Shown here one piece after another: positions 3,483 through 30,455 of a stretch of DNA of 46,345 nucleotides (position 1 is the stretch's first letter; each line of letters starts with the position of its first letter). Source of the DNA: a virus (Duplodnaviria > Caudoviricetes); IMG/VR virus record IMGVR_UViG_3300031519_000039, positions 1 to 46,345 of that record; one strand, given 5' to 3'. The position numbers were made by a program, and so were the translations under genes. The notes under the pieces were generated by a model. That model saw only the letters and a program-made list of their open reading frames with translations, was not told where the DNA came from and made no database searches.

Positions 3483-4016
3483 ATGAAAATCCGTGAAGGA
3501 AGACTTATTAACGCACGATTCACTGACCCAACTTGTACAATGATTCGATGCGAGTTTAAAGATTATGATCAGCCTGAAGGTACTAACATTAGTATTCAGA
3601 TGCATAGTTATAATCCTGAAAATAAATTTGTAAAACAAATCTTGGCAGAACATAATGAAGAAGACTTAGAAAGAAACTATGTCGAATTCAATAAGATGGA
3701 AAACCTTCGTCAGCAGATGTTCCAAAAGTTTGTTGAGCGGTTTGACGAGATTATTGATTATTTAGATAGTGGTGTTCCAGCACAGCAGGTGGTAGAAGCA
3801 CCTGTTACACTTTCTGCAATCAAAGATGTTGGTAATGTACCTGAAGACTTCTTTAAGTTAAAGCTTGAAATCTTTGAATTAGAAGAAGTAAAAAATTCAA
3901 AGAATCGCCAATGGAAAGCTGCTATGCGTAAAGCAACTACCAGCCTCGAGCTTCTCTCTTTGTTGAATGAAGTCTATTCAACCCTTGAAAATGAAGAAGG
4001 CGCACGTCAGGATTAA
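3483..4016 (+). CDS. Hypothetical protein (charged, helical)
   Basis: 177-aa ORF with AAGGA SD. Its 3' end overlaps the convergent ORF 3937..4602. Confidence 0.6.
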   Translation: MKIREGRLINARFTDPTCTMIRCEFKDYDQPEGTNISIQMHSYNPENKFVKQILAEHNEEDLERNYVEFNKMENLRQQMFQKFVERFDEIIDYLDSGVPAQQVVEAPVTLSAIKDVGNVPEDFFKLKLEIFELEEVKNSKNRQWKAAMRKATTSLELLSLLNEVYSTLENEEGARQD

Positions 4017-4602
4017 ACTCACCACCAAGATATAGCCAATCACCGGGATACTCAGTGTTAAATTTAACTAGCAACTCTGGGTTATATTCAAGCAAATCTT
4101 CCCAACGAGTTATCCACTCAGCTGGTAGAAATTTCAGATCTAGTTTTGCACGAACACAGTCTTCTACAAAGTATTGTTCACCATTAACGGGGCCCACAGT
4201 GGTCCCGTTTTTGATATAATATTCCATCCAATATTCTGGATCAGCTACAAACTTGTCGTATATGAATCGACAATCTTTTGGATAATACTTTTGAAATCCA
4301 CCTTGTAATTTATAGCCATCAACATCAGTATCTTTCCACCAAGACTGAGTAGCTACAAATTGTCCACGTTCGATTGGATAGTTAATAAGATCCATATAGT
4401 CATTGATAAAGCTTACGTCAATATCAATAACACACACTGGCTCATCGGTATCAAAAGACATTGGAAGTAGTTTATTCCATTGGTGTTTACCAATAGTCTC
4501 TTCACGTATCCAGTTTATGTTTGGTATTTTTGATTCAATGTAGTGTTCATATTCTGGTCCGTACTTATCTCCGGTCCGGACAGCGTATACTTGGATTCCC
4601 AT
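3937..4602 (-). CDS. GT-A fold glycosyltransferase-like protein
   Basis: N-terminal RTGDKYGPEY, DxD motif (IDIDV), GEQYFV and C-terminal LLHFQG. Paralogous to 6134..6832. Confidence 0.6.
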   Translation of the reverse strand: MGIQVYAVRTGDKYGPEYEHYIESKIPNINWIREETIGKHQWNKLLPMSFDTDEPVCVIDIDVSFINDYMDLINYPIERGQFVATQSWWKDTDVDGYKLQGGFQKYYPKDCRFIYDKFVADPEYWMEYYIKNGTTVGPVNGEQYFVEDCVRAKLDLKFLPAEWITRWEDLLEYNPELLVKFNTEYPGDWLYLGGEFNPDVRLLHFQGLNRLHSTKREARGW

Positions 4603-5108
4603 AATTTATCTTTCGCATGATTATATAAAGTGATTGGCATTTGACCGCCATCCCAAGCAAATGAGTCACAAACTTTATCATAGGTTTGATACTCTACTTC
4701 TTTGTAAAGATATTCATCTATGCCTTTGTTATATTTTACCATGTAATAGTCTGGATCTTCAGCAAACTTATCGTGAATATGCGAGTGATCTCCGCACCAA
4801 GACATAATTGAGCTATTCAATGGTGTATGCGCAGGTTCTCTCCACCATGCTTTTAATAGAGTAAACTTAGTAGTGTAAAGATTAATGATAGGCCCATTGA
4901 TAATAATATCGAGATCAAAATAGAGGTATTGTCCTTTCCGAAAAATATCAAACAAAGTGAGCTTATCGTAAACAGAGCCATATACAATATCGTTGACAAC
5001 ATGGATAGTATCGTACTCTCGGCCGCAATTGTCTAACATGTACCTGATATTGTCCACCCAGACTTGCTGACCATAAGCTGGTGGAGTATTCAATAAGACT
5101 ATTTCCAT
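4515..5108 (-). CDS. GT-A fold glycosyltransferase-like protein
   Basis: YDKL, DxD motif (YFDLDIII), LNSSIMSW and GIDEYL. Paralogous to 6134..6832. Confidence 0.6.
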   Translation of the reverse strand: MEIVLLNTPPAYGQQVWVDNIRYMLDNCGREYDTIHVVNDIVYGSVYDKLTLFDIFRKGQYLYFDLDIIINGPIINLYTTKFTLLKAWWREPAHTPLNSSIMSWCGDHSHIHDKFAEDPDYYMVKYNKGIDEYLYKEVEYQTYDKVCDSFAWDGGQMPITLYNHAKDKLWESKYTLSGPEISTDQNMNTTLNQKYQT

Positions 5109-5731
5109 TTACCCATAACCATATATCTAATGTATTTATCAGGAGTACCGTCATTCATGCGTTTCCAATCACCGAATACTTCTTTTAGTTCATTCTTTTC
5201 TATAAGCTCTTGGCAACTTGTTACACAATTGACATGATCAGGCTCGTTTGTTTTGTTGTTTGATTGTAAGACTAAAAGTGTACGCTCAGGACTTTCATAA
5301 CATTCTTTCATCATAGACATATCCCACATGTGTTCACAGCTGGTATTGATTACCATGTGAGTACGTCGTTTCTTTTGATACGTAAAATAGTCTTGGTTGA
5401 ATACTTTAATGTTATAATGTTCAAACGCGTGGCTATATCGACGAATTGCTTTACACGCGAATTCATCTATTTCAAATATATCTATTTCACGAATGTAAGA
5501 TCCAAAGCTTTGATACAGCAAATCAATAAGAGGATAACCAAACCATCCACCAATAATTTCTATGCGAAACTTATCATCAGCACCTTGAGGTATTTGTACT
5601 TTATGTAAGCTATCAATCAGCCATTGTTTACACAGTAGTTGGTTCGGTGATAGACTGTCAAGCAATCTTTCTAGCTTGTCAGGATGATTATACCGAAACC
5701 ACTTTATGATTTCAGCATATTCTATCTGCAT
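5099..5731 (-). CDS. Class I SAM-dependent methyltransferase-like protein
   Basis: Gly-rich motif I (IEIIGGWFG), acidic motif II (FEID), VINTSCEHM and LQSNN. Confidence 0.6.
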   Translation of the reverse strand: MQIEYAEIIKWFRYNHPDKLERLLDSLSPNQLLCKQWLIDSLHKVQIPQGADDKFRIEIIGGWFGYPLIDLLYQSFGSYIREIDIFEIDEFACKAIRRYSHAFEHYNIKVFNQDYFTYQKKRRTHMVINTSCEHMWDMSMMKECYESPERTLLVLQSNNKTNEPDHVNCVTSCQELIEKNELKEVFGDWKRMNDGTPDKYIRYMVMGKWK

Positions 5732-6141
5732 CTAATTTTACCATAAACATACCAGTGTGTTTCTTCTTCGTCACAGCCTTGATCGTATATTTCACCAACA
5801 TCGTATAGGCTAATAAGTTGCTCACACGACTTAATAGGAGTACAGTCACCGTTGTGTTGATCGTTATCACCTATAAGAATTACGTCAGTTCCTTCAGGTA
5901 ATTCAACTGGATATGTTTTCTCTACGTTTTTGTGTATAATCAAGTCAGCGGTTAAATCAACATCGTCAAAGACAAAGTCTTTGTTTACGTAGCTCATCGT
6001 ATTTTCAAACTTAGGATCGTAATCAATAGCTATTGCATCAATACCTATATTATTTAAAGTACGTAAAAATTCACGGACATCATTAGATGCTAATATAATT
6101 ATTCGATCATATTTCATACAAACTTGTTCTAAACTAATCAT
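5722..6141 (-). CDS. Short divergent paralog of the adjacent methyltransferase-like protein
   Basis: AIDYD, IIHKNVEK, IGDN..H..DC.PI.SCEQL and YVYGK align by eye with FEID, INTSCEH, QSNN...HVNC..SCQEL and YMVMGK of 5099..5731. Lacks a clear Gly-rich motif. Confidence 0.45.
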   Translation of the reverse strand: MISLEQVCMKYDRIIILASNDVREFLRTLNNIGIDAIAIDYDPKFENTMSYVNKDFVFDDVDLTADLIIHKNVEKTYPVELPEGTDVILIGDNDQHNGDCTPIKSCEQLISLYDVGEIYDQGCDEEETHWYVYGKIRCR

Positions 6142-6832
6142 ATGATTTCCACATCTTAATTACTCGACTATCAGCTTCGTGCAATTCATAAAGAACATCT
6201 TCAATACCTTTGTTATTGTATTTGTGCGAGGTATTGAATATTGTTACTTTCCCAGGTAGTGTTTTGCCTGATACGTTATAGTTTTCTATAAGACCTTCAT
6301 CCCAATATTGTAGTCTATCGTTCCTTGCATGTTGATAGAATAGATATTTGTCAAGAGACTTATAGGTCCATTCAATCTTTTCCCAATTGTCATTTGTGAA
6401 TTTAATTAGCCATTCAGGATTATCAAACTTTACGAATGAACTATTAACATGGCATGAAGCACCTTTACCAAACCAGCGCAATGATTTCATCCAATACGGA
6501 TTCCAATAATTCCATATCATTTTATAATCGGATGGATCATCAGCCATATTGGTAATGTCGTTATGAATAAGTATATCAAGGTCAAGCCAAACACCTGATT
6601 CGTGCTTTTCCATAAGGATAAGCTTTTCATACGTAAAAACACGATCAGTTGGACCAAACTTACGCAAATCTTTGATGTCTTTTACTTCTACTTCTTCACG
6701 CAAACCTTTATAATTATTAGTATAGCATGTAAGAGTAAATGGCTTATGGTAGTGTTTTTTAAGTCCGCCATATAGTCTATTGACATATTCAGGACCATAT
6801 TTGCTTCCCCATTTTAGTGTAAAGAAGTTCAT
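6134..6832 (-). CDS. GT-A fold glycosyltransferase-like protein
   Basis: LKWGSKYGPEYVNRL, CYT, DxD motif (WLDLDILI) and VNSSF. Confidence 0.65.
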   Translation of the reverse strand: MNFFTLKWGSKYGPEYVNRLYGGLKKHYHKPFTLTCYTNNYKGLREEVEVKDIKDLRKFGPTDRVFTYEKLILMEKHESGVWLDLDILIHNDITNMADDPSDYKMIWNYWNPYWMKSLRWFGKGASCHVNSSFVKFDNPEWLIKFTNDNWEKIEWTYKSLDKYLFYQHARNDRLQYWDEGLIENYNVSGKTLPGKVTIFNTSHKYNNKGIEDVLYELHEADSRVIKMWKSYD

Positions 6833-7480
6833 CTATACCTCATAATTAAAGTGTTGCATTATCTTTACAAATTCTTTTGTATGGCATTTTGTTTTATCAA
6901 TTGTGTGCTTTGGTCTATATATGGGTTTCTTTATTTGTTCAAAACGCATAAGAGCATTTGGATCGTCAACAACATCAGACCATTGCGGTAAATTCATTTC
7001 ATGATAATTGAGCATCTGTTTTTCGTATGGTAATTCAATATGTTTACAAATCTTTTTTAGTTCTGCACCTGGGTTATCTAAGATGTCTTCGTATTTAACA
7101 ACGAGGCCTTTGCCATCATGCTTTATTACTTCGTTGTGGTCTTGAATATATCTATCTAATGCTTTATTAAAGTCATTGTATCGTTTATCTAAACTAGCAA
7201 CAACGTCATATCCGCTGCGAACACAGAAGATAAACTTCGGATCATAGTCTTCTATGATTTTATCTACGTGATATATATGTTTAGGAGTCTTTTCGAGGAA
7301 GACACTTTCTTTTCGTCTAGTAGCTTCTTTGTATAAAGTAGGAAGTATCCATTTGTGTTCATCCCAAACATATGACCAAGTTTCAACATATGGCGTATAA
7401 ATCTCGCTATGAACCGATAACATAGTTGTAAGGATAGTGGTGCCGGTATGACCACACCCGCAGATGAATACTAATCGCAT
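6833..7480 (-). CDS. Sulfotransferase (Sulfotransfer_3-like, PAPS-dependent)
   Basis: 5'-PSB loop FICGCGHTGTT, EKTP, 3'-PB motif VRSGYDVVAS, VKYEDI. Confidence 0.8.
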   Translation of the reverse strand: MRLVFICGCGHTGTTILTTMLSVHSEIYTPYVETWSYVWDEHKWILPTLYKEATRRKESVFLEKTPKHIYHVDKIIEDYDPKFIFCVRSGYDVVASLDKRYNDFNKALDRYIQDHNEVIKHDGKGLVVKYEDILDNPGAELKKICKHIELPYEKQMLNYHEMNLPQWSDVVDDPNALMRFEQIKKPIYRPKHTIDKTKCHTKEFVKIMQHFNYEV

Positions 7481-7512: not shown

Positions 7513-7541
7513 ATTATAACACTTTCTATGAAGAAAGTAAA
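7513..7541 (-). promoter_or_regulatory. Sigma70-type promoter for the leftward transferase operon
   Basis: Minus strand reads TTTACT-17 nt-TATAAT with an extended -10 TGn. It lies upstream of the AAGGT SD and ATG at 7480. Confidence 0.55.
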
Positions 7542-8997
7542 GGCAAAAATGAAAAAGACAAATAAAGAAATAGATGATATGTTTCCAACTGACACGTTTT
7601 GTGCCTTACCTTGGATGCATTTATCCACTCGACCAGATGGAAGTATGCGTGTATGCTGTACAGCCAATGCGTCTGGTGTAGCTGTTAACGCTAAATCCAC
7701 AGATAAACCGGTATCAAAATCAGGTATTGTTCGTAATGATGATGGCCAACCAGCTAATCTCAATAATACGAGCCTCATGTCTGCTTGGAATAACGAATAT
7801 ATGCGTGGCGTAAGAAAGGCAATGCTCGATGGAAAGAAACCTTCAAGTTGTACGAAATGCTATAAAGAAGAAGATGCTGGCCATAGATCTAAAAGGATAT
7901 GGGAAACTCGTAAATGGATTAAAGATCTTGGTGGTGTTGACCAGATTATCGAAGATACACAAGCGGATGGATCAGTTCCTGCAAGGATACGCTACATCGA
8001 CTTACGCCTTGGTAGTAAGTGTCAGCTTGCATGTGTTATGTGCAGCCCTGATGATTCCAGTAATTGGATAAAAGACCATAAGAAGATATTTCCAACTCTT
8101 CAAAATAAAGAGCTAAGGAAGTCTATGTCATGGACAAAAGAAACTGGTGAGCAGGCTGCTTTAGGTACATCATACAATTGGCATAAAAATAATCCAGACT
8201 TTTGGGATGAACTATATGATACACTGCCAAACCTTAGACAGTTATATTTTGCTGGTGGTGAACCACTTATTATCGATGAACATTACACATTACTTGAGAA
8301 ATGTATTGATGAAGGACTAGCAGGCGATATTGAACTACGATACAATTCAAATGGCATTGAATGGCGTGAAGATCTATTTGATTTATGGAAACAATTCCGC
8401 AATGTAATCTTCCACTTCAGCGTTGATGATATTGATATACGAAATCATTTCATTCGTTATCCTTCAAACTGGGAAGTGATACAAGGATCAATGCATAAGA
8501 TGGATGCGTATCCTCATGGTAATCTAACACTCACAACTGCTTGGACGTGTACACTACTCAACATCTATTATCTACCTGAGTTTATCAAATGGAAGATTGG
8601 ACAAAACTTTAAGAATATGAATAAGTGGCCACATGGTGCTGGATTGTTTTCTTGTCATATAGCTTATTGGCCACCGCAACTTAACGTAAAAGCTTTGCCT
8701 GATTGGTTTAAGGCAGAAGTAAGACAAAAATTTGAAGAAGAACTATATCCTTGGCTAGAAGAAAACTGGCAAAGTTGTACTGGTGTTAAAGAAGCTGGTA
8801 TTACGTATGAAGAGTTTATAGCTTCTGAATACGGAATTAAACGAATGGAAGGGCTGCTCTCGTTTATGGAGGCTGATGATTGGAGTGAACGTTTGCCTGA
8901 AACAGCTGAGTGGTGTTACACCGTAGCAAAGACACGTTTTCTTAATTTTGATGAAGTATTTCCAGATCTTGAATGGCTAAAGTGGTATAATAAATGA
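7528..8997 (+). CDS. Radical SAM protein with N-terminal twitch-like Fe-S domain (rSAM-1)
   Basis: N-terminal FCALPW..VCC..CTKC, CQLACVMC and GGEP. The true start may be ATG 7549, which has an AAGG SD. Confidence 0.85.
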   Translation: MKKVKAKMKKTNKEIDDMFPTDTFCALPWMHLSTRPDGSMRVCCTANASGVAVNAKSTDKPVSKSGIVRNDDGQPANLNNTSLMSAWNNEYMRGVRKAMLDGKKPSSCTKCYKEEDAGHRSKRIWETRKWIKDLGGVDQIIEDTQADGSVPARIRYIDLRLGSKCQLACVMCSPDDSSNWIKDHKKIFPTLQNKELRKSMSWTKETGEQAALGTSYNWHKNNPDFWDELYDTLPNLRQLYFAGGEPLIIDEHYTLLEKCIDEGLAGDIELRYNSNGIEWREDLFDLWKQFRNVIFHFSVDDIDIRNHFIRYPSNWEVIQGSMHKMDAYPHGNLTLTTAWTCTLLNIYYLPEFIKWKIGQNFKNMNKWPHGAGLFSCHIAYWPPQLNVKALPDWFKAEVRQKFEEELYPWLEENWQSCTGVKEAGITYEEFIASEYGIKRMEGLLSFMEADDWSERLPETAEWCYTVAKTRFLNFDEVFPDLEWLKWYNK

Positions 8998-10127
8998 CAA
9001 AAACATTATGTTCAGCACCGTTCTTCCATCAGGTAGTTCATAGCACCGGTCAGTATAATTTGTGTTGTAGCGCTAGAACTACGACAGGCAAAGATTACAG
9101 TGATTGGAATGGTGCAGACTACCAAGCAATTAGAAAGCATATGTTAGAAGAAGATGAGCTTCCGGCTGAGTGTTTGCTATGCACAGAGCAAGAAGAAAGT
9201 GGAGCAGGTTCGCAACGTGAGCAATTGTTTCGTCTATACAATAGTCTTGATAGACCAGCACTTGACACAGTAACTGGAACATCTATGGATGCTCCTATAT
9301 CTTTAGATTTGCGAATGAATAATCTTTGTAATCTTTCATGCAGAATGTGCGGACCTGAAGCAAGTACTATGATATTGAAAGAAGCAAAAAAGAATCCGGA
9401 TTTACCGCTATGGGATGATCACGATGTTAAGTTAGCAGAAAAGGTTCATCCATTTGACATTGAAACACTTATCAAAAATGCTGGTTCTATTTTTGATTTA
9501 AGTTTACTTGGCGGTGAACCATCTGTGCAACCAGAATCAATTGCGTTGTTAGAAGAACTAGTAAGATTAAAGAAAACAAATATTCGTCTGTTTATTACTA
9601 CAAATGGAACAAATCATAATCCTAAGTTTTTTAATTTAATCCAGCAATTTAAACGACTTTGCGTAACAGTTTCTATTGATGGTTGGGGTAAACAACATGA
9701 GTATATTCGTGGGCCCGGGGCTAATTGGGATACAATATGGAAGAACGTCAAAAAGATTCAAGGCATGGCCAACAACCCTAAAATGATGTTACAACAAACT
9801 GTAACTACTTTAAACATCTTTGATTTTTGGAAACTAAATAAATTTAATGACACCGGTATAGAAATTATGACGTTCCACACATATGGTCCTCCTAAATATT
9901 CTCCAATGAATATACCAGATAAATGGAAAAAAATAGCAATATCCATTGCTAAAGAAAATAGTCAATACGAAGAAAATAGTAATATATGGCATCAAATGAA
10001 TAAACCCGGAGATATAAAGTTCGTAAAAGGTATGAAAGATTATACAGCAATGTTAGATAGTGTAAGAAACCAGTATCTTATTGACAACTTTCCTATAGCA
10101 TATGAAATGTTTGAGGATATTGGTTAA
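8994..10127 (+). CDS. Radical SAM protein with N-terminal twitch-like domain (rSAM-2)
   Basis: LCSAPF..LCC..CLLC, CNLSCRMC, GGEP, TTNGT and SIDG. ATGA overlap with the upstream gene. Confidence 0.85.
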   Translation: MTKTLCSAPFFHQVVHSTGQYNLCCSARTTTGKDYSDWNGADYQAIRKHMLEEDELPAECLLCTEQEESGAGSQREQLFRLYNSLDRPALDTVTGTSMDAPISLDLRMNNLCNLSCRMCGPEASTMILKEAKKNPDLPLWDDHDVKLAEKVHPFDIETLIKNAGSIFDLSLLGGEPSVQPESIALLEELVRLKKTNIRLFITTNGTNHNPKFFNLIQQFKRLCVTVSIDGWGKQHEYIRGPGANWDTIWKNVKKIQGMANNPKMMLQQTVTTLNIFDFWKLNKFNDTGIEIMTFHTYGPPKYSPMNIPDKWKKIAISIAKENSQYEENSNIWHQMNKPGDIKFVKGMKDYTAMLDSVRNQYLIDNFPIAYEMFEDIG

Positions 10128-11269
10128 TGTTTTGCTTTGTTCCTTTTATGCATTCACATGTTGACACTACAGCCACAAATAGAGTTTGCTGTGCTGGCCA
10201 ATGGTATAAGAAATACGATCTACAAGAGTGGGATAGTAAAGACTATCAAGATATTAGAACATCGTTAATGAGTGACGACACTGAATGGCGCCGCGAATGT
10301 ATTGAATGTAAGAATAAAGAAGAATCGGGAGCACAGTCTTTAAGACAACACTATAATGATGTGTATGATCAATTTGACAAACCTGAATTGAATATTGTTA
10401 CTGGTACAAACTTTGATGCTCCAATCTCTTATGATTTAAGTATGACTAACTTATGTAACTTATCATGTAGAATGTGCGGTCCACATAGCAGTTCTCAACT
10501 TCAAAAAGAATCAATTAAACATCCGGAGCTATGGCCTGAATACGCTGATGATTTACACAAAGACTACAATAAAAGATATGACTTAGATAAGATGCTTGAT
10601 AACGCTGAGTCTTTATTCGAAGTAAAATTTAGAGGTGGTGAACCTACGTTACAACCAGAAACTCGAGCCATTCTAGAAAGATTAATTGAAGTTGGTAATA
10701 TAAATCTCAATATTCTATTAACTACTAATGGAACAAATGCTAATAACACGTTTTTCAAACTACTTACACAATTTAAGAATGTTCATATTCAATTTTCAAT
10801 CGATGCTTATGGTAAAGGCCATGACTATATACGTGGACCAGCAAGTGATTTTAAAACAATCTGGTCAAATGTAAAAAAGATACGTGAACTCAATTGGGCT
10901 GGTAATGTTGATTTTGAAATCAATCAAACAGTTCAAACACTAAATATCTTTGACTTTTGGCGGTTACGTCAAGAGGTAAGCCTTCAATATGATTGGTGTA
11001 GATTTCGTAATTTTATTGTGTATGATCCGCATATTCATAGTCCTCGGTTTATGCCAGATCAATGGAAAGATATTGCAGTAGCAAAAGCAAAAGAAGCTGG
11101 AGCATATGAAGATGAAAAACACATCTTTAATATGCTGAATAAATATAATCATAATAACGATGTTATGCAAGCATTGCGTGGTAATATTGAACTCATGGAT
11201 GTGTCACGTAAGCAACATCTAAAAGATTATTATCCACTTGTTAATGATTTATTTGAGGCACATGAATGA
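10127..11269 (+). CDS. Radical SAM protein with N-terminal twitch-like domain (rSAM-3)
   Basis: FCFVPF..VCC..CIEC, CNLSCRMC and GGEP. Close paralog of rSAM-2. Confidence 0.85.
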   Translation: MFCFVPFMHSHVDTTATNRVCCAGQWYKKYDLQEWDSKDYQDIRTSLMSDDTEWRRECIECKNKEESGAQSLRQHYNDVYDQFDKPELNIVTGTNFDAPISYDLSMTNLCNLSCRMCGPHSSSQLQKESIKHPELWPEYADDLHKDYNKRYDLDKMLDNAESLFEVKFRGGEPTLQPETRAILERLIEVGNINLNILLTTNGTNANNTFFKLLTQFKNVHIQFSIDAYGKGHDYIRGPASDFKTIWSNVKKIRELNWAGNVDFEINQTVQTLNIFDFWRLRQEVSLQYDWCRFRNFIVYDPHIHSPRFMPDQWKDIAVAKAKEAGAYEDEKHIFNMLNKYNHNNDVMQALRGNIELMDVSRKQHLKDYYPLVNDLFEAHE

Positions 11270-19858: not shown

Positions 19859-20915
19859 TGTTAAGATGGTCCACTTTGAGCCTACACAAATGTGTCAGGC
19901 TTCTTGTCCTATGTGTGATAGGAATAAGAATGGTGGAGAAGTAAATCAATATCTTAAAGATGAGTCAATGACTCTTGAAGGTTTCAAAGCTGCGTTTTCA
20001 CGCGAGTTTATTGCCAACCTTGATACATTCTTTTTCTGTGGTAATCACGGCGATCCTATCTTTGCGCCTGACATGTTAGAACAAGCAAAGTTCGTACGTG
20101 AATGTAATCCTACAATCAATATGTTTGTCACTACCAATGGTGGAGCACGAAAGCCTGAGTGGTGGGAAGAACTAGCTCAAGTCGTATCGTTTGTAAATTT
20201 CTCGGTTGATGGATTACAAGACACTAATCATTTCTACAGACAGGGTGTCAAGTGGTCTAATGTTGAAGATAACATGGCTGCCTTCTGCGATGCTGGTGGA
20301 CACGCTAAATGGACATTTCTTGTATTCAATTACAACGAACATCAAATAGAACAAGCTAGAATGTTTTCAAAGATTTTAGGAGTCAAAGACTTTATTGTAA
20401 AGAAGTCAGGACGGTATATCAACACTGCTAATTTACAAAAGAAAGACGATCATCAAGCAGTCTTTCGAAAGAAAGATTCAACACGCTTATCACCACCTAA
20501 GAATCCAAAGTATCGCAATAAAGCAATTGATGAAGACTATGAATCAATTGTCAAAGCTTATGGTTCTATGGACAAGTTTATTGATGTGGCTGAGATTAAA
20601 CCGAAATGTATGCAAAAGAAAGAAATCTATGTATCTGCCGAAGGACTTGTCTTTCCATGTTGTTGGTTAGCTGGTCAAGTATATAAATGGTGGAGACCTA
20701 TAGAAGATTCTCAAGAATATAAAGTCATTCAAAAGACTGGTGGCTTTGAGAAGATTAATGTACACTATACACCTCTTGAAGAGATTATGGAAGGTGATTT
20801 CTTTTCATCAGTAAAAGATAGCTGGGACATTCATGGGGTTGGCCAAGGTAGAATGAAAACGTGTGGATTAAAATGTAATGTAGGTTTTGATCCGTTTGAG
20901 GCGCAATGGAAATGA
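19851..20915 (+). CDS. Radical SAM protein with C-terminal twitch/SPASM domain (rSAM-9)
   Basis: CQASCPMC, GNHGDP and C..IYVSAEGLVFPCC..CGLKC. Close paralog of rSAM-8. Confidence 0.85.
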   Translation: MYDVKMVHFEPTQMCQASCPMCDRNKNGGEVNQYLKDESMTLEGFKAAFSREFIANLDTFFFCGNHGDPIFAPDMLEQAKFVRECNPTINMFVTTNGGARKPEWWEELAQVVSFVNFSVDGLQDTNHFYRQGVKWSNVEDNMAAFCDAGGHAKWTFLVFNYNEHQIEQARMFSKILGVKDFIVKKSGRYINTANLQKKDDHQAVFRKKDSTRLSPPKNPKYRNKAIDEDYESIVKAYGSMDKFIDVAEIKPKCMQKKEIYVSAEGLVFPCCWLAGQVYKWWRPIEDSQEYKVIQKTGGFEKINVHYTPLEEIMEGDFFSSVKDSWDIHGVGQGRMKTCGLKCNVGFDPFEAQWK

Positions 20916-22273: not shown

Positions 22274-23141
22274 AAAATTATTAATTGCAGGCGGCTGTAG
22301 CTGGACATCTCCATGGGAACCGTATTATAAAGAAGCTGGCATGAAAGCTGTTTGGCCGAATCACGTAGCTGACTGGTTTGAATGGGATCTATTAAATGTT
22401 GGTCATGGTGGTGCATCTAATGATATGATTCATAATAGAGTGATTGACGCTATTACAGAAAACGAAGATAGAGATATTGTTGTAATGGTTGCATGGTCTC
22501 AAGCTATGAGATTGGCTATTTTTGATATGCCAATAGCACAAATGACTTTTAATGTATTCATGCCAGATTTATCGCCACCATTTGGTAAAGGAAAAACAGA
22601 TTGTCAGCAAGCGCTAAGAACGTTATTGCAACATCATGTTCATGAGTTTGGCGGAGATCTTATTGGTCCAGACAGTATAGACGGAACTACAGGTGTCCCA
22701 GTTGGAGTATCTCGATCTGATCACTACCGCATGATTGCTCGGTGGTCAATACGGCACATCTATATGCTAAATGAATACTGTATATCTAAAGGCATTCCAA
22801 TTATTCATCACAGAGCACTCAATATACTAAATGGCATTGAATGGGTAATGGATCCTGAAGTCAATATGAAAAACAGAAATAAAGTTTATGAAGCTGTTAA
22901 CGATGACAGCCGAATCAATATCATCTATAACAAAATAAAAACATGGGATAACGTAGTCGGCCCACATTTATTTGAGCCTGAAAGCTCATGCTATGAATTA
23001 TATCCACAATACTTTCTTAGTAGACAAGAACAACACCCAAATGCTAGAGGAATGCAATTGATTGCTCATAGTTTTGTAAATAAGTTCATTGAACGATATG
23101 AAGAAAAAGCAAAGACCGAAGCGGATTATGTCTATGACTAG
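22257..23141 (+). CDS. SGNH/GDSL-like hydrolase or acyltransferase-like protein (paralog 1)
   Basis: Block I-like GGCSWT, block II-like GGASN and block V-like HPN. Start taken at ATG 22257. Confidence 0.55.
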   Translation: MSKFSKKLLIAGGCSWTSPWEPYYKEAGMKAVWPNHVADWFEWDLLNVGHGGASNDMIHNRVIDAITENEDRDIVVMVAWSQAMRLAIFDMPIAQMTFNVFMPDLSPPFGKGKTDCQQALRTLLQHHVHEFGGDLIGPDSIDGTTGVPVGVSRSDHYRMIARWSIRHIYMLNEYCISKGIPIIHHRALNILNGIEWVMDPEVNMKNRNKVYEAVNDDSRINIIYNKIKTWDNVVGPHLFEPESSCYELYPQYFLSRQEQHPNARGMQLIAHSFVNKFIERYEEKAKTEADYVYD

Positions 23142-23835
23142 ACTACTTATAACTGGCGGTTGCAGCATCACTGATCAAAAAACAAACGATTATTTGTATG
23201 AAGGCGGAGTGTTTACTTGGCCAACAGCAGTAGCTGATTATATGGAATCTAAATTACTCAATGTAGCAAAGCGTGGTAGAGGCAATGACTACATAGAAAA
23301 TATGATATTTGACGCAATATTAGAAAATCATGATAAGTATGATTGCACTGTAATGGTGTATTGGACCGAAGCATATAGAGTAAATCTTTTCGATACTGAT
23401 ACACTTTGGGATTATAGCCGTGGAAATCAAAACGAATTAATGTATCAAGGTATTTGTCAAAAAGATGCTATTAATATGTCTTTTCGTAATATGAGAAGAT
23501 TAAAGTTAGTATGTGATAGCTTCAATATTCCATGTTATTACCGATTAAATCAAGGGTTTCATGCTAAAGTAAAAGGTCAAGAAGATGTGTATGATTGGCT
23601 AGCTGATCACCCTGCTATAACTGAATTTAATTTATCTTACGCTGAAGTTTTATCTGGTAGATTATCTAATCATAATGATAAAAATAAACATCAATGGCAA
23701 ACTTTACCAGATGCGCATCCTAATCAAAAAGGTCAAGATGAAATAGCAAAAATGTTTATAGATACGATGAATGGCACAATTTTAGACGATATTGAGCCAA
23801 CACCGTTATTAATTGATAGGTTTGTTTATGACTAA
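23134..23835 (+). CDS. SGNH/GDSL-like protein (paralog 2)
   Basis: GGCSIT, GRGN and DAHPN. Start overlaps the upstream stop. Confidence 0.55.
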   Translation: MTRLLITGGCSITDQKTNDYLYEGGVFTWPTAVADYMESKLLNVAKRGRGNDYIENMIFDAILENHDKYDCTVMVYWTEAYRVNLFDTDTLWDYSRGNQNELMYQGICQKDAINMSFRNMRRLKLVCDSFNIPCYYRLNQGFHAKVKGQEDVYDWLADHPAITEFNLSYAEVLSGRLSNHNDKNKHQWQTLPDAHPNQKGQDEIAKMFIDTMNGTILDDIEPTPLLIDRFVYD

Positions 23836-24535
23836 GCTTATTATAACTGGTGGTTGCAGTGTTGGAGATCAGGAATGTAAAGATTATAAAACTGAAGGTG
23901 GTGTGACTGTATGGCCAACATTATTATCTGAGTTAACAAATACTAAAGTTCTAAATGTTAGTAAACAAGGTATGGGTAATGATTACATTGAAAACACCGT
24001 GTTTGATGCTATACTTAAAAACAAAGATAAGTATGATTGTACAGTTTTAGTATATTGGACAGAATCATTACGCATAAACTTATTTGATACACACACTAAC
24101 ATGGAAATCAAAAAAATAATATGTGATTCAGAAACAGATATATGTGTGTCGTCTTTAGGATATGATCCTTATACAGTTATTAATAAAAACTTTCGTAATA
24201 TGAAAAGAATACAATTAATTTGCAATAAATTTAACATCAAATGCTATCACCGATTAGTTTATGGTTTTTCACACGGTTCTGCAGTTTTAAAAAAGTGGCT
24301 TGGTAATCATCCTGCTATTGAAGAATTTAACTTATCATATTTTGAATTGATCGGTGGCAGATGGTCGAATCGCAATAATCATATGATGGAAAACAATCAA
24401 TTGCATGGTGGTCATCCAAATCAAAAGATGCAATATGAAATTGCTAATATGTTTATAGATACAATGAATGATGTTAATATGGAAAGATTAGAAAAGCCAG
24501 CTGAAATGTCTGGACGAGATTTTGTTTATGACTGA
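23828..24535 (+). CDS. SGNH/GDSL-like protein (paralog 3)
   Basis: GGCSVG, GMGN and GGHPN. Clearly similar to paralog 2 (NDYIEN..FDAIL, DKYDCTV.VYWTE). Confidence 0.55.
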   Translation: MTKLIITGGCSVGDQECKDYKTEGGVTVWPTLLSELTNTKVLNVSKQGMGNDYIENTVFDAILKNKDKYDCTVLVYWTESLRINLFDTHTNMEIKKIICDSETDICVSSLGYDPYTVINKNFRNMKRIQLICNKFNIKCYHRLVYGFSHGSAVLKKWLGNHPAIEEFNLSYFELIGGRWSNRNNHMMENNQLHGGHPNQKMQYEIANMFIDTMNDVNMERLEKPAEMSGRDFVYD

Positions 24536-25628
24536 TTTGAAATGGAGTCAATACGACTTCACAAAAATACCACTTGATAAAATTGTAAAAGTCGGTCAAA
24601 GGACTATGCTGCATCGTGACTTGTTCACTGTGAGCTGGTTGCTTGGTCGTTTTTGTAATTACTCATGTTCTTATTGTTGGCCATACGCATCAAGCCGTAC
24701 AAAAGACCATAGACCAATTGATTTGATTCTTATGACAATTGACGAAATTAAACGTCAGTCACGTGGTAATGGCTATAATTCTTTTCATTTTAGTTTTAGC
24801 GGTGGTGAACCTACATTCCATCCACAGTATTTAGAAATTATGCAATATCTTGCTGATGACGTGCCTGAGTGTAATTATCATTCAGTTCATATGACATCTA
24901 ACATTTCACGTAAAATGAAATGGTTTGAAGAATACGCTGCAATTTGCAGTAAGTTTCACAGGTCAAGTATCACAGCCTCGTGTCATAGAGAACATGTAGA
25001 TACACAAGCCAAAGTTGCGGAGTTTGCCGACAAGTTAGAATATTGCCAAAGCCAAGACATTCAAGTAACAATCAATCAAGTGATGCTGCCGGATCTATTT
25101 GAGCAATGTTGGGAAGACGCGTTATACTTCCATGAAAGAGGAATCAATGTCACTCTTAAACCTCAGTCTGATCCTACTGCTAGTTTTATCGTCGATGGTT
25201 ATACTGACAATATGCTTGAACGCTTACGCAACGGCATGCCTCAACGAGGATATACCGATCAGAAAAAAGAAATCATTAGACCTAAACCAAAAGAACAATT
25301 AGATCTACGGTACGAAACTACTGGTGTTCCACAACATATGCAAGTAGAATTAGAAGATGATGAAGGAAAAAAGTGGTATATGGATCAAGCTGAGCGATTC
25401 AACACTTTTGAATTCAATAAGTTTAAAGGATGGAGCTGCGAGTCTGGCTATCGTAGTATTATTATCCGAGAACCTGATGGTTCTATTAAACGTAGCTATT
25501 CCTGTGATGATGAACCATTAGGTAATATTGCCACTGGATTCAAATTATTTGATAAACCAATGCCATGTATCACAAATAGTTGTGTTTCTTCTGCTGATTC
25601 TAAGATCCCTAAAACCAAAATTGTATAA
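24528..25628 (+). CDS. Radical SAM protein with C-terminal Cys cluster (rSAM-10)
   Basis: CNYSCSYC, GGEPT, MTSN and C-terminal CESG..SC..CITNSC. Confidence 0.85.
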   Translation: MTDLKWSQYDFTKIPLDKIVKVGQRTMLHRDLFTVSWLLGRFCNYSCSYCWPYASSRTKDHRPIDLILMTIDEIKRQSRGNGYNSFHFSFSGGEPTFHPQYLEIMQYLADDVPECNYHSVHMTSNISRKMKWFEEYAAICSKFHRSSITASCHREHVDTQAKVAEFADKLEYCQSQDIQVTINQVMLPDLFEQCWEDALYFHERGINVTLKPQSDPTASFIVDGYTDNMLERLRNGMPQRGYTDQKKEIIRPKPKEQLDLRYETTGVPQHMQVELEDDEGKKWYMDQAERFNTFEFNKFKGWSCESGYRSIIIREPDGSIKRSYSCDDEPLGNIATGFKLFDKPMPCITNSCVSSADSKIPKTKIV

Positions 25629-25685: not shown

Positions 25686-26042
25686 ATGGCTCAGTACGAA
25701 GAAATTACTATAGATCAAGGTAGCGACGTGGCTATTCAACTAGAGTTGATAGATCACACAGGCGCGGCCAAGTCTTTGATTAATCATTCAATTGCAGCAA
25801 AGATGAAAAAGAATTATAATTCTGTAGACTCAGCTGATATTCAGAACTTCTCCACAATTGTCGCGACACCGTCCACTGCTGGTATTTGCACGCTTTCTTT
25901 AACTAATTCTCAAACCGATGCGCTAAAAGCTGGACGGTACGTATATGATGTAGAAATTTCTTTTATCGATAGTGATAGTCAAACTATTGTTGAAAGAATC
26001 CTTGAAGGCCGGATCCAAGTTACGCCATCAGTCACTAAATAG
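25686..26042 (+). CDS. Small virion structural protein (BppU-like / fibre-attachment domain)
   Basis: TIDQG..., SLTNSQT..L.AGRYVYDVEI..RILEG, a pattern common in marine T4-like phages. Follows a late promoter and contains 3 DS. Confidence 0.65.
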   Translation: MAQYEEITIDQGSDVAIQLELIDHTGAAKSLINHSIAAKMKKNYNSVDSADIQNFSTIVATPSTAGICTLSLTNSQTDALKAGRYVYDVEISFIDSDSQTIVERILEGRIQVTPSVTK

Positions 26043-26050
26043 GAACTGAT

Positions 26051-29000
26051 ATGGCCGAAAAAAGGACTTACGTTAAAAGAATTACAGTTGGCCGACCGGT
26101 CAAAAGTATTAACGAAGCTGCGTCTGGTGTTGTTATCGGCTCCGGCCGGATAGCCGGCGATATTCTTGTTAACAAATCATCTACCAATTTATTTGAGCCA
26201 GGGTCGTTAGTTGCAGGCCACGGCCTTGATAAATCGTATGGTGATAGTAACTCAAACAATATTGTAATGTCTATTGACTCATCTGAGTTAAAAGAGATTA
26301 TCGATTCTGATTATATTAAATTTATGACAGGGCAGGCTACTACTCGGAACTTTGTAGATTCCGCGTATGTTGAAGCTAACTCTCTTGATTCTGAAAGAGG
26401 CTTAAATTTATTCCGCAACGATTTAGCTGCACTTACCACTTCTATTGTTCCAGACGTTGATAGCGCGATTGATCTTGGTTCTCAAACTAAGAAGTTCCGT
26501 AAATTATTCTTATCAGGAAATACTATCAAACTTGGCACACTGAATATAAGTGATTCTGGTGGAATCTTTGTAGTACGCGATTCAGATAATAACAACACAA
26601 AACTTGATCTTTCTGCTAACTCAACAAATGATTTATTAGAAAGTGATAACTTATACTATACAAGAGCTCGGTTTGATTCAGCTTTAGGTGATACTACATC
26701 TAAAGGAACAATTCGTGGATATATCAATTTAGCTGGTGCACCAGCTGGCGACGGATCACTAACATACGATTCGGGCTCTGGCCAGTTAACATACACTGGA
26801 CCAAGCCCTGCTGAAGTAAGAGCTCATTTCTTGGCAGTTGATTCCGGTGGAGATGGAGCTTTTTCTTACGAACAAGCAACTGGTAAATTCATATATCGTG
26901 GACCAAGCGCTACCGAAGTAAGGAAACATCTTAACATTGTCGATGCTGGCGGTGATGGATCGTTGGCATATGACTCAGCTCTAGGAAAGTTAACGTACAC
27001 TGGACCGTCTGCTACTGAAGTTAGAAGACATTTTAATACTGCAATTGCAAGTGGTGATGGCTTCCTTGCTTATGATTCGGCATTAGGTAAGTTTACATAT
27101 ACTGGACCATCGGCAGATTCTATTAGATCGCACTTCTCGGCAGCTGGTGATTTAACATATAACTCTGGTACTGGTGAATTTAGCTTTAACGTTGAAACAG
27201 TATACACACAGGCTAATTTCGAATCAGATCTAAGCTTATCATTGAATGCTACAAATGGTATTGCATACGATTCAGCTAAACACAAACTATCGCTAATAAA
27301 CACTGGTGTTGATTCAGCAATTTATGGCTCATCAACTCGAGTGCCGATTCTTACAGTTAACGCACAAGGTAGAATTGATTCTGCTGGTTCTGTATTAGTA
27401 GCTGGTGTAACTGGTGTAACATTTGATTCTGCTACTGAAAAACTTACAATTAGCACTGCAGATGGTGGTTCATTCTCTACAGCAATAGGTGGATATGATA
27501 ATCTTCAGGCTACTACATTTACAGGCACAAATGCTGCAATTGATTCTGCGGTAATATCGTTTATCTCAGGCGGTCATGCTAATTACGATTCAGCTCATAT
27601 CAGTCAATTACTAGTTGATTCTGGTCGGTTTACAGTACTTACATCGCCTAATATAACTGCAGATTCAGCAATTGCCAATAACATATCAGGTAATAATTTA
27701 AATTATGGTATCGGCCGAATTGGTCAGTTCAACGCAGATTCTGCTGAAACTGTTAATCTAAGAGTATCAGGCAGTCTTATAGTTGCCGGTTCGCAATCAA
27801 TTATTAATACCGAAGTATTTAAAGTCACAGATCCGCTTATTCACTTAGCTGATAGTAATGTAATAAGTGATATTATCGATATTGGATTTATTGGTAAGTA
27901 TTATGCTGATGCACAGCAAAGACACACTGGTTTAGTCAGAGATGCTAGCGCTGGCCAGTATTATCTATTTGATAATAGCATAGATTCTGCTTCTGATTCA
28001 GTTAATACTATTAATCTTGGCGCAACTGGTTTTAGAAAAGCATGGCTTAACGTTGGTAATATTATAGCTGATTCGGCTACTATGACTAACCTAACAGTTA
28101 CTGGTTTAGCATCAACAACTCTTGCAAGAACAGCAACAGTTGATTCTGGTACGTACGGTTCTGCAACGAGAGTTCCAATTCTAACAGTTAATACTTCTGG
28201 ATTCATTGATAGTATTGGTGAAGTATTAGTTGCAGGAGTTACAGGATTAACTTACGATTCGAATACTGAAAGTATCACGATATCGACTGCTGATGGTGGT
28301 TCATTCGCAACACATATTGGTGGATTCAAAAATATAGATGTAGATTCTGCTAATATATTCAATATAGCTGGTAGTAATATTCACTATGACTCAGGTTTTA
28401 TTGGTCAATTTAGTACTGATTCTGCGCATATATCGCAACTCAATACTACGGTTGTAAGAGCAGGTGGAATTCTTGCAGACTCTGGTGATTACACAGTACT
28501 TAAAATTGGTGGTGCTCATGTCAACACCGAGATGTTTACTGATTCGGCCTTTGTTTTAGCACGAATCGAAGCGTTATCGCTTGACTCTGAAAGAACAATT
28601 AATCTTATTAGAAATGATAATCTGTTTGTTGATTCAGCTTATATCGAGCAAGTTTCACTTGACTCTGAAAGAGCAGTCAATTTAATTGATTCAAATTATA
28701 TCAATGAACGTTCACATCAACTTACTCGTGATGAATTTTCATTTACACTGACAAATGCTGGATCAGCCGCTGGTCCAAGAATCGTACTTGATAGAAACAG
28801 CTCAAGCGCAGCAGATTCTGATGCTCTAGCAATGATTGAATTCCGTGGTAGAAACGATGCGGATTCTAATATAACATATGCTAAGATCGAAAACTTTATT
28901 AACGATGCATCAGCTGATAGCGAAGATGGTGAGTTACACTTTACTATAAAACAATCTGGTATACTTAGAACAAAGATGAAAATGACTCCAACCGGTATTG

Positions 29001-29338
29001 TACTGGCTGGAAACGAAAGAATAATGTTTAGCGATGATTCATTCCAACAAGCGCTTATCCCTGGTGACTATACATCCAACCACGGGCTTACACTACCAGA
29101 CTCAACCGGTACGCTTTTAACACGTGAATTCGTATCAAATATTATCGATTCAGATTATATTGGTCTAAGAGCATCATCAACTGGATTTACTCTAGACTTT
29201 GCCGATAGCGCCGGAGCTACAAAAGTAAGTCTTGTAATTCTTCAAGCTGCAACAATCGCAACCGGAGCCGTTATTGGCTTTGGTAACACCGTAACATTAT
29301 TAGACACAGACAGCGCGGCAGTAACTATCTCGCTTTAA
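26051..29338 (+). CDS. Long tail fibre / fibre-like virion protein, extremely Asp-Ser rich
   Basis: 1095 aa, G/S/T/A-rich with internal repeats, NLYYTRARFD and about 47 DS dipeptides (manual count). Late transcription unit. Confidence 0.75.
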   Translation: MAEKRTYVKRITVGRPVKSINEAASGVVIGSGRIAGDILVNKSSTNLFEPGSLVAGHGLDKSYGDSNSNNIVMSIDSSELKEIIDSDYIKFMTGQATTRNFVDSAYVEANSLDSERGLNLFRNDLAALTTSIVPDVDSAIDLGSQTKKFRKLFLSGNTIKLGTLNISDSGGIFVVRDSDNNNTKLDLSANSTNDLLESDNLYYTRARFDSALGDTTSKGTIRGYINLAGAPAGDGSLTYDSGSGQLTYTGPSPAEVRAHFLAVDSGGDGAFSYEQATGKFIYRGPSATEVRKHLNIVDAGGDGSLAYDSALGKLTYTGPSATEVRRHFNTAIASGDGFLAYDSALGKFTYTGPSADSIRSHFSAAGDLTYNSGTGEFSFNVETVYTQANFESDLSLSLNATNGIAYDSAKHKLSLINTGVDSAIYGSSTRVPILTVNAQGRIDSAGSVLVAGVTGVTFDSATEKLTISTADGGSFSTAIGGYDNLQATTFTGTNAAIDSAVISFISGGHANYDSAHISQLLVDSGRFTVLTSPNITADSAIANNISGNNLNYGIGRIGQFNADSAETVNLRVSGSLIVAGSQSIINTEVFKVTDPLIHLADSNVISDIIDIGFIGKYYADAQQRHTGLVRDASAGQYYLFDNSIDSASDSVNTINLGATGFRKAWLNVGNIIADSATMTNLTVTGLASTTLARTATVDSGTYGSATRVPILTVNTSGFIDSIGEVLVAGVTGLTYDSNTESITISTADGGSFATHIGGFKNIDVDSANIFNIAGSNIHYDSGFIGQFSTDSAHISQLNTTVVRAGGILADSGDYTVLKIGGAHVNTEMFTDSAFVLARIEALSLDSERTINLIRNDNLFVDSAYIEQVSLDSERAVNLIDSNYINERSHQLTRDEFSFTLTNAGSAAGPRIVLDRNSSSAADSDALAMIEFRGRNDADSNITYAKIENFINDASADSEDGELHFTIKQSGILRTKMKMTPTGIVLAGNERIMFSDDSFQQALIPGDYTSNHGLTLPDSTGTLLTREFVSNIIDSDYIGLRASSTGFTLDFADSAGATKVSLVILQAATIATGAVIGFGNTVTLLDTDSAAVTISL
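26747..27140 (+). repeat. Four tandem ~32-aa repeats in the fibre (GDG.L.YDS..GK.TY.GPS..EVR.HF)
   Basis: Visible in the translation, followed by a partial fifth unit. Confidence 0.8.
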
Positions 29339-29340
29339 TG

Positions 29341-29348
29341 TATAAATA
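29341..29348 (+). promoter_or_regulatory. T4-type late promoter
   Basis: TATAAATA in the intergenic region before 29376. Confidence 0.8.
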
Positions 29349-29375
29349 GACAAAGGAAACTAAAGGAATCAAAAA

Positions 29376-30455
29376 ATGGCAGATCGTATTCCACTAATCA
29401 TTGAAGGATCGAGTATTCGAGAGCTCCCGTCGGATGACAGGCTTGATGTTCGAGGAGCGTTAGAAGTCAATGGGCATATAACACCGGGTGCAGACTCGGC
29501 ATATGACATTGGTACTTCAGCGCTAAAATTCAGAGATATATTCTTATCAGCTGGTACAATACACCTTGGTGGCGTTAAGCTACGAGCGGATGGTAATAAA
29601 CTATCGATTCAAGATAGCGCAGGAGTTACTTCAAGTTTAGCTGCAACTTCACAGTTTGTAAGCGGAGATTCGGGATCAAGTCAATTCCGTTTGGCAGTAT
29701 CTGATGCAATATCAGTTGGCACTGGTACTGGATTAGGAAGTTTAGCTTACGATTCGGCTCGAGGTCAATTTACATTGACTGGAGTAACACAAGCTAATGT
29801 TATGTCAACTATGCAAGCAGGCACTGGAGTGGGTATCGATTCTGCCAGCGGTACACTTTCTATCGGTCAAGCTGTAGCAACAACTGACTCAGTAACATTT
29901 GCTGGTTTATATTCTTCAGGTAACGTAATTCTTGGTGGTAACCTCACAGTTAACGGAACAACTACAACAGTCAATTCAACAAATAGTTTAGTTGCTGATC
30001 CTTTAATTGAATTAAATACAGGTGCAACTTCGAACGCTAACGATCTCGGATTTGTATTTGAACGTGGTTCAACTGGTAACAATGCTGCAATTATCTGGGA
30101 CGAGTCTGAAGACAAGTTCAAGATGGGTACAACAACAGCAACAGGTGCTTCAACTGGTGATATGACAGTTGCAACAGGAACTTTGATTGCTAATGTTGAA
30201 GGTAACGTAACTGGTTCATCAGGATCTAGTACTGGTAACGCCGCAACAGCAACTGCATTAGCAACAGCTCGAGCAATCGCTGTTGCTGGAGATGTAACTG
30301 GTACAGCTAACTTTGATGGAACGGCTGGAATTAGTATTACAACCGCTCTTGCTGCTAACACAGTTTCTTCAACAGAATTAGTAAGTGCAAGCACACTACT
30401 CATTAAGAACACAGCTGGTACAACGCTGAAAACAGTAATTGGAGCCGGTAGCTAA
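29376..30455 (+). CDS. Fibre-like virion protein
   Basis: 359 aa with GNLTVNGTTTTVNS, ADPLIEL and GNAATATAL..AR.I fibre motifs. Shares segments with 26051..29338 and 1951..2535. Confidence 0.7.
   Translation: MADRIPLIIEGSSIRELPSDDRLDVRGALEVNGHITPGADSAYDIGTSALKFRDIFLSAGTIHLGGVKLRADGNKLSIQDSAGVTSSLAATSQFVSGDSGSSQFRLAVSDAISVGTGTGLGSLAYDSARGQFTLTGVTQANVMSTMQAGTGVGIDSASGTLSIGQAVATTDSVTFAGLYSSGNVILGGNLTVNGTTTTVNSTNSLVADPLIELNTGATSNANDLGFVFERGSTGNNAAIIWDESEDKFKMGTTTATGASTGDMTVATGTLIANVEGNVTGSSGSSTGNAATATALATARAIAVAGDVTGTANFDGTAGISITTALAANTVSSTELVSASTLLIKNTAGTTLKTVIGAGS

Follow-up and report, generated by a model that had tools for sequence, protein, structure and literature searches.

An Asp-Ser motif on outer virion proteins and a variable enzyme island: possible two-part virion glycosylation in uncultured T4-like phages

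The 46,345-base IMG/VR record IMGVR_UViG_3300031519_000039, analyzed here over its whole length and referred to as the window, is a fragment of a T4-like phage, with PHROG matches to a VrlC-like gene at its left end and to gp13 through gp23, uvsY, and uvsW at its right end. An earlier note on this DNA had pointed to an island of enzyme genes within the tail/baseplate module, flanked by virion proteins rich in the dipeptide Asp-Ser (DS), and had proposed that the island decorates DS serines with a complex glycan. We find that the motif and the island are both real and are linked more loosely than first proposed. DS likely behaves as a surface modification tag, and the tagged serines are likely sugar attachment sites. 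Our preferred reading, held with slightly less than even confidence, is a two-part virion glycosylation in which a core enzyme encoded outside the window would prime DS serines and an exchanged island would extend and edit the glycan. What stands of the original proposal is a surface tag, DS being enriched in outer and, as found here, depleted in inner virion proteins, and an island that encodes a GT-A glycosyltransferase (GTc); what is not supported is the island as the reader of DS, its likely role being to extend and edit the sugar. Directly in hand are the motif pattern, the gene content, the GT-A fold, and the discordant distribution of motif and island.

The DS motif in outer virion proteins

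Fifteen virion proteins of the window hold 87 DS where 35.5 are expected (counts are given below as observed/expected, and significance within the window comes from 2,000 shuffles, none of which reached 87). DS is their most enriched dipeptide and is flat elsewhere in the window, at 23/25.9 in the island and 11/12.0 in 12 other genes. A 1,095-aa fiber (26051..29338; coordinates refer to the plus strand unless the minus strand is named) contributes 47 DS, with 47 of its 88 Asp residues followed by Ser, in 45 different 7-mers at a median spacing of 19.5; when it is set aside, the virion proteins still hold 40/25.2 (equaled in 4 of 2,000 shuffles). The 359-aa fiber that follows (29376..30455) has 6/2.5. 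The excess had been described as lying on both sides of the island; on the left the 194-aa fiber-like protein (1951..2535; tail fiber PHROGs, E 4e-7) alone is DS rich, at 6/2.3. The part of the VrlC-like gene present in the window has 4/3.8, and the virion-like protein p309 has 1/1.4. A DNA-level artifact was ruled out: all six Ser codons are in use, and the large fiber has no DNA tandem repeat.

All five DS of the tail sheath gp18 (35802..37580) fall in residues 85 to 290, and none falls in the conserved C-terminal 302 residues. The major capsid protein gp23 (41810..43141) carries three in a 73-residue variable insertion, one in the N-terminal part, and none in its last 261 residues. Within the insertion, residues 148 to 159 of gp23 form a DxDxDS run that is conserved in many relatives and may be a Ca2+ site. 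Among 59 sheath sequences more than 50% identical to that of the window, residues 85 to 290 hold 236/112 and the conserved C-terminal part holds 8/72; among 28 capsid sequences, the variable insertion holds 67/22, at shifting positions, and the part C-terminal to it holds 8/24. From T4 structures, carried over by alignment, we take the DS-bearing parts of sheath and capsid to be outward facing.

Annotated phages are distant from the window. None of 50,697 phage records has a sheath more than 45% identical to that of the window. We found no cultured close relative among these records, and one island radical S-adenosylmethionine (SAM) enzyme finds matches of only 22 to 34% identity there. A genome collection gave a single hit, a phage contig binned in a metagenome-assembled genome, and host assignment gave no result. 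Relatives came as tiles of 28 virus records (out of 38), and an added sample supplied 8 virus records, from the 10 with a VrlC match out of 20 searched, plus one genome contig. The DS clade comprises 31 of this set, including the window, grouped by similarity to the window and by motif counts and thus not assembled blind. Controls were HTVC008M, Melnitz, Syn19, ACG-2014f, AG-345-L05, and T4. Because homologues are not independent, these ratios should be read as the outline of a pattern, not as probabilities.

In the DS clade, DS followed by Ala or Asp (DS[AD]) reaches 444/67.5 across gp7-like, gp8, gp9/10-like, VrlC, gp14, and gp15 proteins, 5/24.7 in the inner families gp6, gp13, gp17, gp19, gp21, and gp22, and 152/132.9 in nonstructural open reading frames (ORFs). 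The six controls are flat, at 17/20.3 (outer) and 7/7.9 (inner); HTVC008M, unlike the window, has no DS excess (70/66). By family, DS is high in gp7-like proteins (130/57), gp8 (158/69), and gp15 (56/24) and low in terminase (7/36.5), gp25 (2/14.2), and gp6 (28/79.7). The inner-protein ratio (terminase and inner baseplate) is 0.35, versus 0.79 in controls. DS stands in many unrelated sequence contexts. All DS phages fall into a single group, C48C1 included, on a gp6 tree.

The tag is not uniform among close kin. In the nearest relatives by gp13 (L001 and L002; 92 to 93%), the last fiber has DS counts of 0/2.1 and 0/1.3 and gp14 and gp15 retain DS; distal fibers are often without the tag. Five loci (L012, L014, L016, L017, and L055) have DS-rich gp14 extensions (17 to 18 DS versus 6) and DS-rich genes after gp15 (18 to 19 versus 3 to 4).

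The residue after DS in the window is most often Ala (31), followed by Gly (13), Asp (11), and Asn (8). The earlier note had likened the motif to the O-glycosylation sequon of Bacteroidota, given in the accessible text of PMC12871550 as D-(S/T)-(A/L/V/I/M/T) on noncytoplasmic proteins. The two share an Asp directly before the hydroxyl residue, and DSA fits both; they differ in DT use, in the +2 residue, and in compartment, virions being assembled in the cytoplasm. DT is not enriched in the virion proteins of the window, DT[ALVIMT] (9/13.9) and DS[LVIMT] (8/11.1) are not raised, and DS[DGNS] is raised (38/10.9), so that DT and the +2 residues rule out identity with that sequon.

Content and distribution of the enzyme island

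As the earlier note had it, about 21.7 kb of enzyme genes sits within the tail/baseplate module: 24 ORFs over 21,692 bp (3937-25628), between VrlC-like and fiber genes on the left and adaptor, fiber, and gp13 genes on the right. Its GC content is 0.362, and those of its flanks are 0.388 and 0.398. Six ORFs lie on the minus strand and 18 on the plus strand, and the two sets diverge at 7480-7528. The intervening 47-base AT-rich gap (7481-7527) carries a late-promoter-like AATAAATA, with one mismatch, and TATAAT on the minus strand. The locus matches a published host recognition cluster, variable, placed between VrlC and neck genes, and holding fibers, glycosyltransferases, and radical SAM cassettes; the accessible text of PMC7029224 describes it as a hypervariable island in pelagimyophages and cyanomyophages and, as far as that text goes, mentions no virion motif.

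The gene content listed in the earlier note is firm for ten radical SAM enzymes, the carbamoyltransferase, one sulfotransferase, and GTc. All ten radical SAM genes match Pfam Radical_SAM (E 4.9e-12 to 6.4e-6; eight above the gathering score), and seven exceed the cutoff of NF033640 (N_Twi_rSAM), a computational family for which we found no reaction. Five of these seven are in tandem (7528..13822; 245 to 390 bits, cutoff 170) and two follow (15182..17652; 206 and 218 bits). They carry four to six cysteines N-terminal of CxxxCxxC and are mutually 20 to 41% identical, which marks them as old paralogues; a scan of genome contigs with a single one of these proteins revealed no bacterial setting. 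The other three have seven to nine cysteines after CxxxCxxC, as C-terminal auxiliary-cluster candidates: two by Pfam and motif (18872..20915) and the last island gene (24522..25628; PF04055, E 4.9e-12). The proposed likeness to the twitch enzyme BtrN does not extend to the seven with N-terminal twitch cysteines; in BtrN the radical SAM domain comes first and the twitch domain is C-terminal, a layout compatible with three of the ten. The carbamoyltransferase (20906..22273) belongs to the NodU/TobZ/CmcH family (PF16861, E 7e-47; PF02543, E 5e-37) and scores 135 bits against a NodU cutoff of 1,000; both it and the sulfotransferase (6833..7480, minus strand; PF13469, E 2.6e-15) are over the Pfam cutoff.

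GTc (6134..6832, minus strand) is a GT-A enzyme by modeled fold and DxD motif. Its GT8/GT24-like model (predicted local distance difference test [pLDDT], 92.3) matches LgtC best in Foldseek (E 3.5e-8, TM 0.62), followed by LARGE1, UGGT, and glycogenin, most of which add sugar to sugar, and we predict it to be a chain-extending glycosyltransferase. A PDB sequence search with GTc gave nothing at useful E values.

The remaining assignments are weaker. GTa (3937..4602, minus strand) leads to Atlas clusters named nucleotide-diphospho-sugar transferase (0.98) and keeps its DxD in 36 of 36 aligned homologues; GTb (4515..5108, minus strand) matches phrog_1962 (E 2.3e-4). MT1 (5099..5731, minus strand) has a class I SAM-binding fold, with profile matches to spermidine synthases (E 0.004) and Atlas methyltransferase clusters (0.98). 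The short MT2 (5722..6141, minus strand), conserved in cassettes and called methyltransferase-like in the earlier note alone, has no match in Pfam, PHROG, or NCBIfam. The pyridoxal phosphate (PLP) enzyme (13812..14720) is fold-type I and class I/II-like by weak NCBIfam matches (E 2.1e-4 and 0.006), with SxSK..G..R.G in nine of nine sequences; it has no PDB hit and no DegT/DnrJ sugar aminotransferase match in Pfam at E 0.01, and is not of that type. A possible 2-oxoglutarate (2OG)-Fe(II) oxygenase (14698..15258) has an HxD motif and no library match, and a possible second sulfotransferase (17652..18179) has RNP[WYF] in four of four sequences and no library match. The QueC-like PP-loop ATPase (18163..18900) is marginal (PF06508, E 2.4e-5, 24.4 bits versus a cutoff of 22); it scores 20.4 bits against the QueC equivalog TIGR00364 (cutoff 150.3), and no gene of the island matches QueD or FolE in Pfam. 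Three SGNH-like proteins (22230..24535) complete the set (DUF6071, E 4e-4, for one), with G.S in 20 of 23 homologues and HP in 19 of 23. No transporter or membrane enzyme was recognized among the 24 genes with Pfam, PHROG, or NCBIfam.

DS was expected to rise with the presence and size of the island, and it does not. Across 21 contigs with baseplate genes, radical SAM count and baseplate DS[AD] ratio give a rho of -0.60, in a set that leaves out the window, G012, MAG450, and contigs lacking baseplate genes, that includes islands cut by contig ends, and whose members are kin and not independent; scaling with island size is thereby ruled out. The earlier note had held that equally strong DS in relatives lacking the island would tell against it, and this is in part what we see, DS[A/D] being as strong or stronger with zero or one radical SAM gene. 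G016 spans VrlC to gp13 with no recognized enzyme gene there and has DS[AD] of 27/3.4, so that a requirement for the island in cis is unsupported. G037 lacks the cassette, yet has two other glycosyltransferases at the same place, and G017 and MAG450 have a DxD-bearing ORF there with no library match. The DS-rich G016, G017, and G037 lack MT1, which non-DS phages do carry.

Among 18 DS-clade contigs collected independently of the island, 14 have at least one island-family glycosyltransferase after VrlC, usually with MT1 and one to four radical SAM genes. A small cassette is therefore common, and the form with 10 to 12 radical SAM genes is an expansion; within the clade the number runs from 0 to 12. 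The G002 island has 13, with three glycosyltransferases, MT1, MT2, PLP, QueC-like, and carbamoyltransferase genes. A further fragment, G020 (L267 to L269; 30% GC), has 21 CxxxCxxC ORFs within about 45 kb, and 18 of these match NF033640. In an MT1 tree rooted at its midpoint, the cassette of the window groups with those of G002, G022, G003, G020, G021, and G028, and the DS group on the gp6 tree excludes G002, G022, G003, and G028. The cassettes closest to that of the window thus belong to phages lacking the DS tag, and two of these phages bear [AS]NT in its place. This discordance, on trees displayed without support values and with no clade test, suggests that the cassette was probably exchanged between phages bearing different tags. 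Together with the p309-p177 pair it also occurs outside the VrlC-gp13 interval (G003, G021, and G028), and it adjoins fiber genes in every gene map examined.

The genes around the island are those of a virion module. The VrlC-like baseplate protein, present as its C-terminal part (1..1749; phrog_358, E 2.6e-84) and named from gene position in HTVC008M and Syn19, anchors the host recognition cluster on its left. p309 and p177 (2539..4016, from gene maps) lie upstream of the enzyme cassette in most relatives, non-DS phages included; neither has a library match, p309 gave nothing useful in a PDB sequence search, and p177 is likely an assembly chaperone. To the right, a 118-aa fiber adaptor/assembly protein (25686..26042; phrog_1084 and phrog_3304; DS 3/1.0) has TATAAATA upstream at 25624, and the neck genes (30455..33771, by PHROG matches) comprise a DS-poor gp13 and DS-bearing gp14 and gp15. 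TATAAATA, which we take to be the T4 late promoter consensus, occurs six times in the window, not above chance, always on the plus strand and directly before virion genes.

Candidate priming genes and a second tag

Long DS-clade contigs carry, ahead of gp32, a second cluster of glycosyltransferase genes (from a scan of 123 ORFs in G001 and G004). Located at L230:17113-L231:4687 in G001 and in L245 in G004, it includes two GT25 genes, GT8-like paralogues, a UDP-galactopyranose mutase, a pyruvyl transferase, and an epimerase. Its conserved 233-aa gene X233 (G001:23989-24687; L231:3989-4687) is our candidate for the initiating glycosyltransferase of the DS clade. We found 1,119 homologues of X233 and 247 of GTc. 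X233 has the pattern IGNG...NCGH...YGFD and a model with pLDDT 91.3, and gave no PDB sequence hit. Of 27 virus fragments, 14 have X233 (8 of the fragments were selected through X233 itself), as does one of nine named records, C48C1, which is also its only hit among the 50,697 phage records. Maf flagellin glycosyltransferases and SdgA/B offer a parallel in the cytoplasmic Ser/Thr glycosylation of filament and Ser-Asp-rich surface proteins; the likeness lies in the X233 motif only, and the window itself encodes no gene of this type. We also weighed a 373-aa gene preceding gp32 as a hidden glycosyltransferase and dropped it, since Cr30 has it too and it shows no glycosyltransferase sign.

The long contigs also have a DNA-modification module near the polymerase, separate from the island (L235:14661-19999 in G001; L248:3775-7572 in G004), with genes for a C5 methyltransferase, a TET-associated glycosyltransferase (G004), a thymidylate synthase homologue, dCMP deaminase, an epimerase, and UDP-glucose dehydrogenase. 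A phage contig of G004 (L247:1691-10629) carries TctA/TctB/TctC and two DctP solute-binding proteins.

A different motif marks other phages. [A/S]-N-T ([AS]NT) is enriched 2.4 to 4.6 times in virion-like proteins of Caulobacter phage Cr30 (L332; 51/11.0), DLP_6 (L339; 42/11.0), phiM12 (L340 to L341; 27/11.4), G002, and G022, the last two having ANT counts over six proteins each of 25/5.7 and 24/5.2. Over the outer families used for DS, [AS]NT totals 96/17.1 in these five phages and 64/75 in the DS clade; DLP_6 and phiM12 also carry it in their capsid insertion. Cr30 encodes a phosphoheptose isomerase, a heptose kinase, a glycosyltransferase, an epimerase, and an RfaE-like gene. A search with its glycosyltransferase matched 15 records, of which three were counted besides Cr30: DLP_6 and phiM12, chosen by this glycosyltransferase before [AS]NT was counted, and AG-345-L05, whose 24% identical homologue is accompanied by no [AS]NT excess (19/19.7).

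BAHT heptosyltransferases use the acceptor motif NSGG. In the accessible text of PMC4358343, Aah and TibC of this family carry out cytoplasmic multisite glycosylation of the beta-helical adhesins AIDA-I and TibA; the parallel is with the heptose enzymes of Cr30 and concerns the NT phages and not the window. Mycobacteriophage glycosyltransferases modify capsid and tail proteins (Freeman et al. 2023, as cited in the accessible text of PMC12363180 and PMC12582341). The present case differs: the phage is a myovirus, its short motif is scattered over many outer proteins, and its candidate tailoring island is large. GTc had no match at E 1e-5 in the 50,697 phage records, and so none to Che8 gp110 or Corndog gp38, a search in which GTa and GTb were not included. 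This type of locus has been published, and glycosylated phage virions are known. For the motif we found no published account: a full-text literature search in which subscription papers were thinly covered returned neither a DS nor an NT tag in phage virion proteins.

Competing explanations and implications

Under two-part glycosylation, the D-S-(A/D/small) tag would mark serines of outer virion proteins for O-glycosylation. X233 or another gene of the second glycosyltransferase cluster would prime them in the cytoplasm, GT-A enzymes of the island would add further sugars, and its radical SAM, PLP, carbamoyl-, sulfo-, methyl-, and acyl-handling enzymes would edit these, the variable coat then altering adsorption or recognition of the particle.

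Several observations weigh against this reading. The reverse dipeptide, SD, shows a mild rise in outer proteins as well (1.34). Five island-bearing contigs (G002, G022, G003, G023, and G028) have no DS excess (ratios 0.98 to 1.14), and for three of them there is no strong substitute motif (G003, 13/7.6, and G028, 8/4.9, both weak at most; G023, none). Position is the only tie between island and virion: no exact TATAAATA lies inside the island save one at its last codons, preceding the adaptor gene, so that the island is not visibly under late control. X233 is outside the window, its likeness to Maf and sialyltransferase folds is a matter of motifs, and in C48C1, which carries it, the tag is weak (DS[AD] 39/21 over all proteins and 0/3.0 in those of the baseplate). 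Homologues do not count as independent cases, and since DS is a single clade on the gp6 tree, its link to X233 counts as one event. The cultured NT phages are likewise kin, and the Cr30-type search did not cover G002 and G022.

DS might instead be served wholly by core genes, with the island acting on a host surface glycan (serotype conversion) or on a p309-type fiber tip only. We consider this unlikely, though deserving of weight. By the MT1 and gp6 trees, the cassette passes between phages with and without DS, in the company of p309-p177; DS does not track island size; the best fold match of GTc is the lipooligosaccharide enzyme LgtC; and the island interior lacks an exact late promoter. The accessible text of PMC7029224 also reads glycosyltransferases at this locus as modifiers of the host O chain. 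Against it stand the absence of a recognized transporter or membrane enzyme among the island genes, the fiber genes beside every mapped cassette, and the little that a lytic phage would presumably gain from a 22-kb host-coat pathway. It is rather less probable that DS is structural and unmodified (helix N-cap, Asx turn, or Ca2+ loop), beside an unrelated auxiliary cluster. Contexts such as hydrophobic-D-S-A-Y-V, which we take to resemble helix caps, and Y-D-S-x-x-G, which we take to resemble hairpin turns, fit that explanation, as does the DxDxDS run of the capsid insertion. However, [DN]x[DN]xDS holds only 41 of 2,376 DS, which rules out Ca loops as the general cause, outer orthologues of control phages lack the excess, NT phages use a different dipeptide, and a folding need would leave the avoidance in terminase and inner baseplate proteins unaccounted for (0.35 versus 0.79 in controls).

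A nonsugar modification of DS, whether phosphorylation, a phospho-linked adduct, or methylation of Asp to aspartimide/isoaspartate by MT1, appears improbable. Asx-Ser/Thr pairs are succinimide prone, MT1 has an Atlas lead to PCMT-containing clusters, and the PLP enzyme is class I/II-like. That lead, at 0.87, is below the Atlas bar of 0.9, and the PDB profile prefers spermidine synthases, for which reasons MT1 was not retained as a protein isoaspartate methyltransferase; its absence from DS-rich G016, G017, and G037 and presence in non-DS phages also speak against it. Most improbable of all, in our estimation, is hypermodification of phage DNA by the island. QueC-like, carbamoyltransferase, 2OG-like, and glycosyltransferase genes do serve DNA hypermodification elsewhere, but DNA is a less likely target because relatives hold a distinct module for it beside the DNA polymerase, and the island lies among fiber genes and varies widely in size.

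More broadly, and only tentatively, since we think it rather doubtful as a whole, two-part glycosylation may be one case of a modular virion glycocalyx: each lineage would have its own Asx-hydroxyl sequon (D-S-A/D here; A/S-N-T in Cr30, phiM12, DLP_6, and some marine phages) and its own core priming enzyme, and an island passed horizontally between phages, with as many as about 20 radical SAM enzymes, would diversify the sugar, as O-antigen loci diversify bacteria. If so, an abundant group of uncultured T4-like phages would bear a variable, phage-made sugar coat written via a readable sequence tag. The glycosyltransferase and radical SAM genes of marine host recognition clusters would gain a target other than host lipopolysaccharide, and the uncharacterized N_Twi_rSAM family would gain a substrate class. 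For the cultured Cr30, phiM12, and DLP_6, the [A/S]NT tag and accompanying glycosyltransferase would predict modified threonines.

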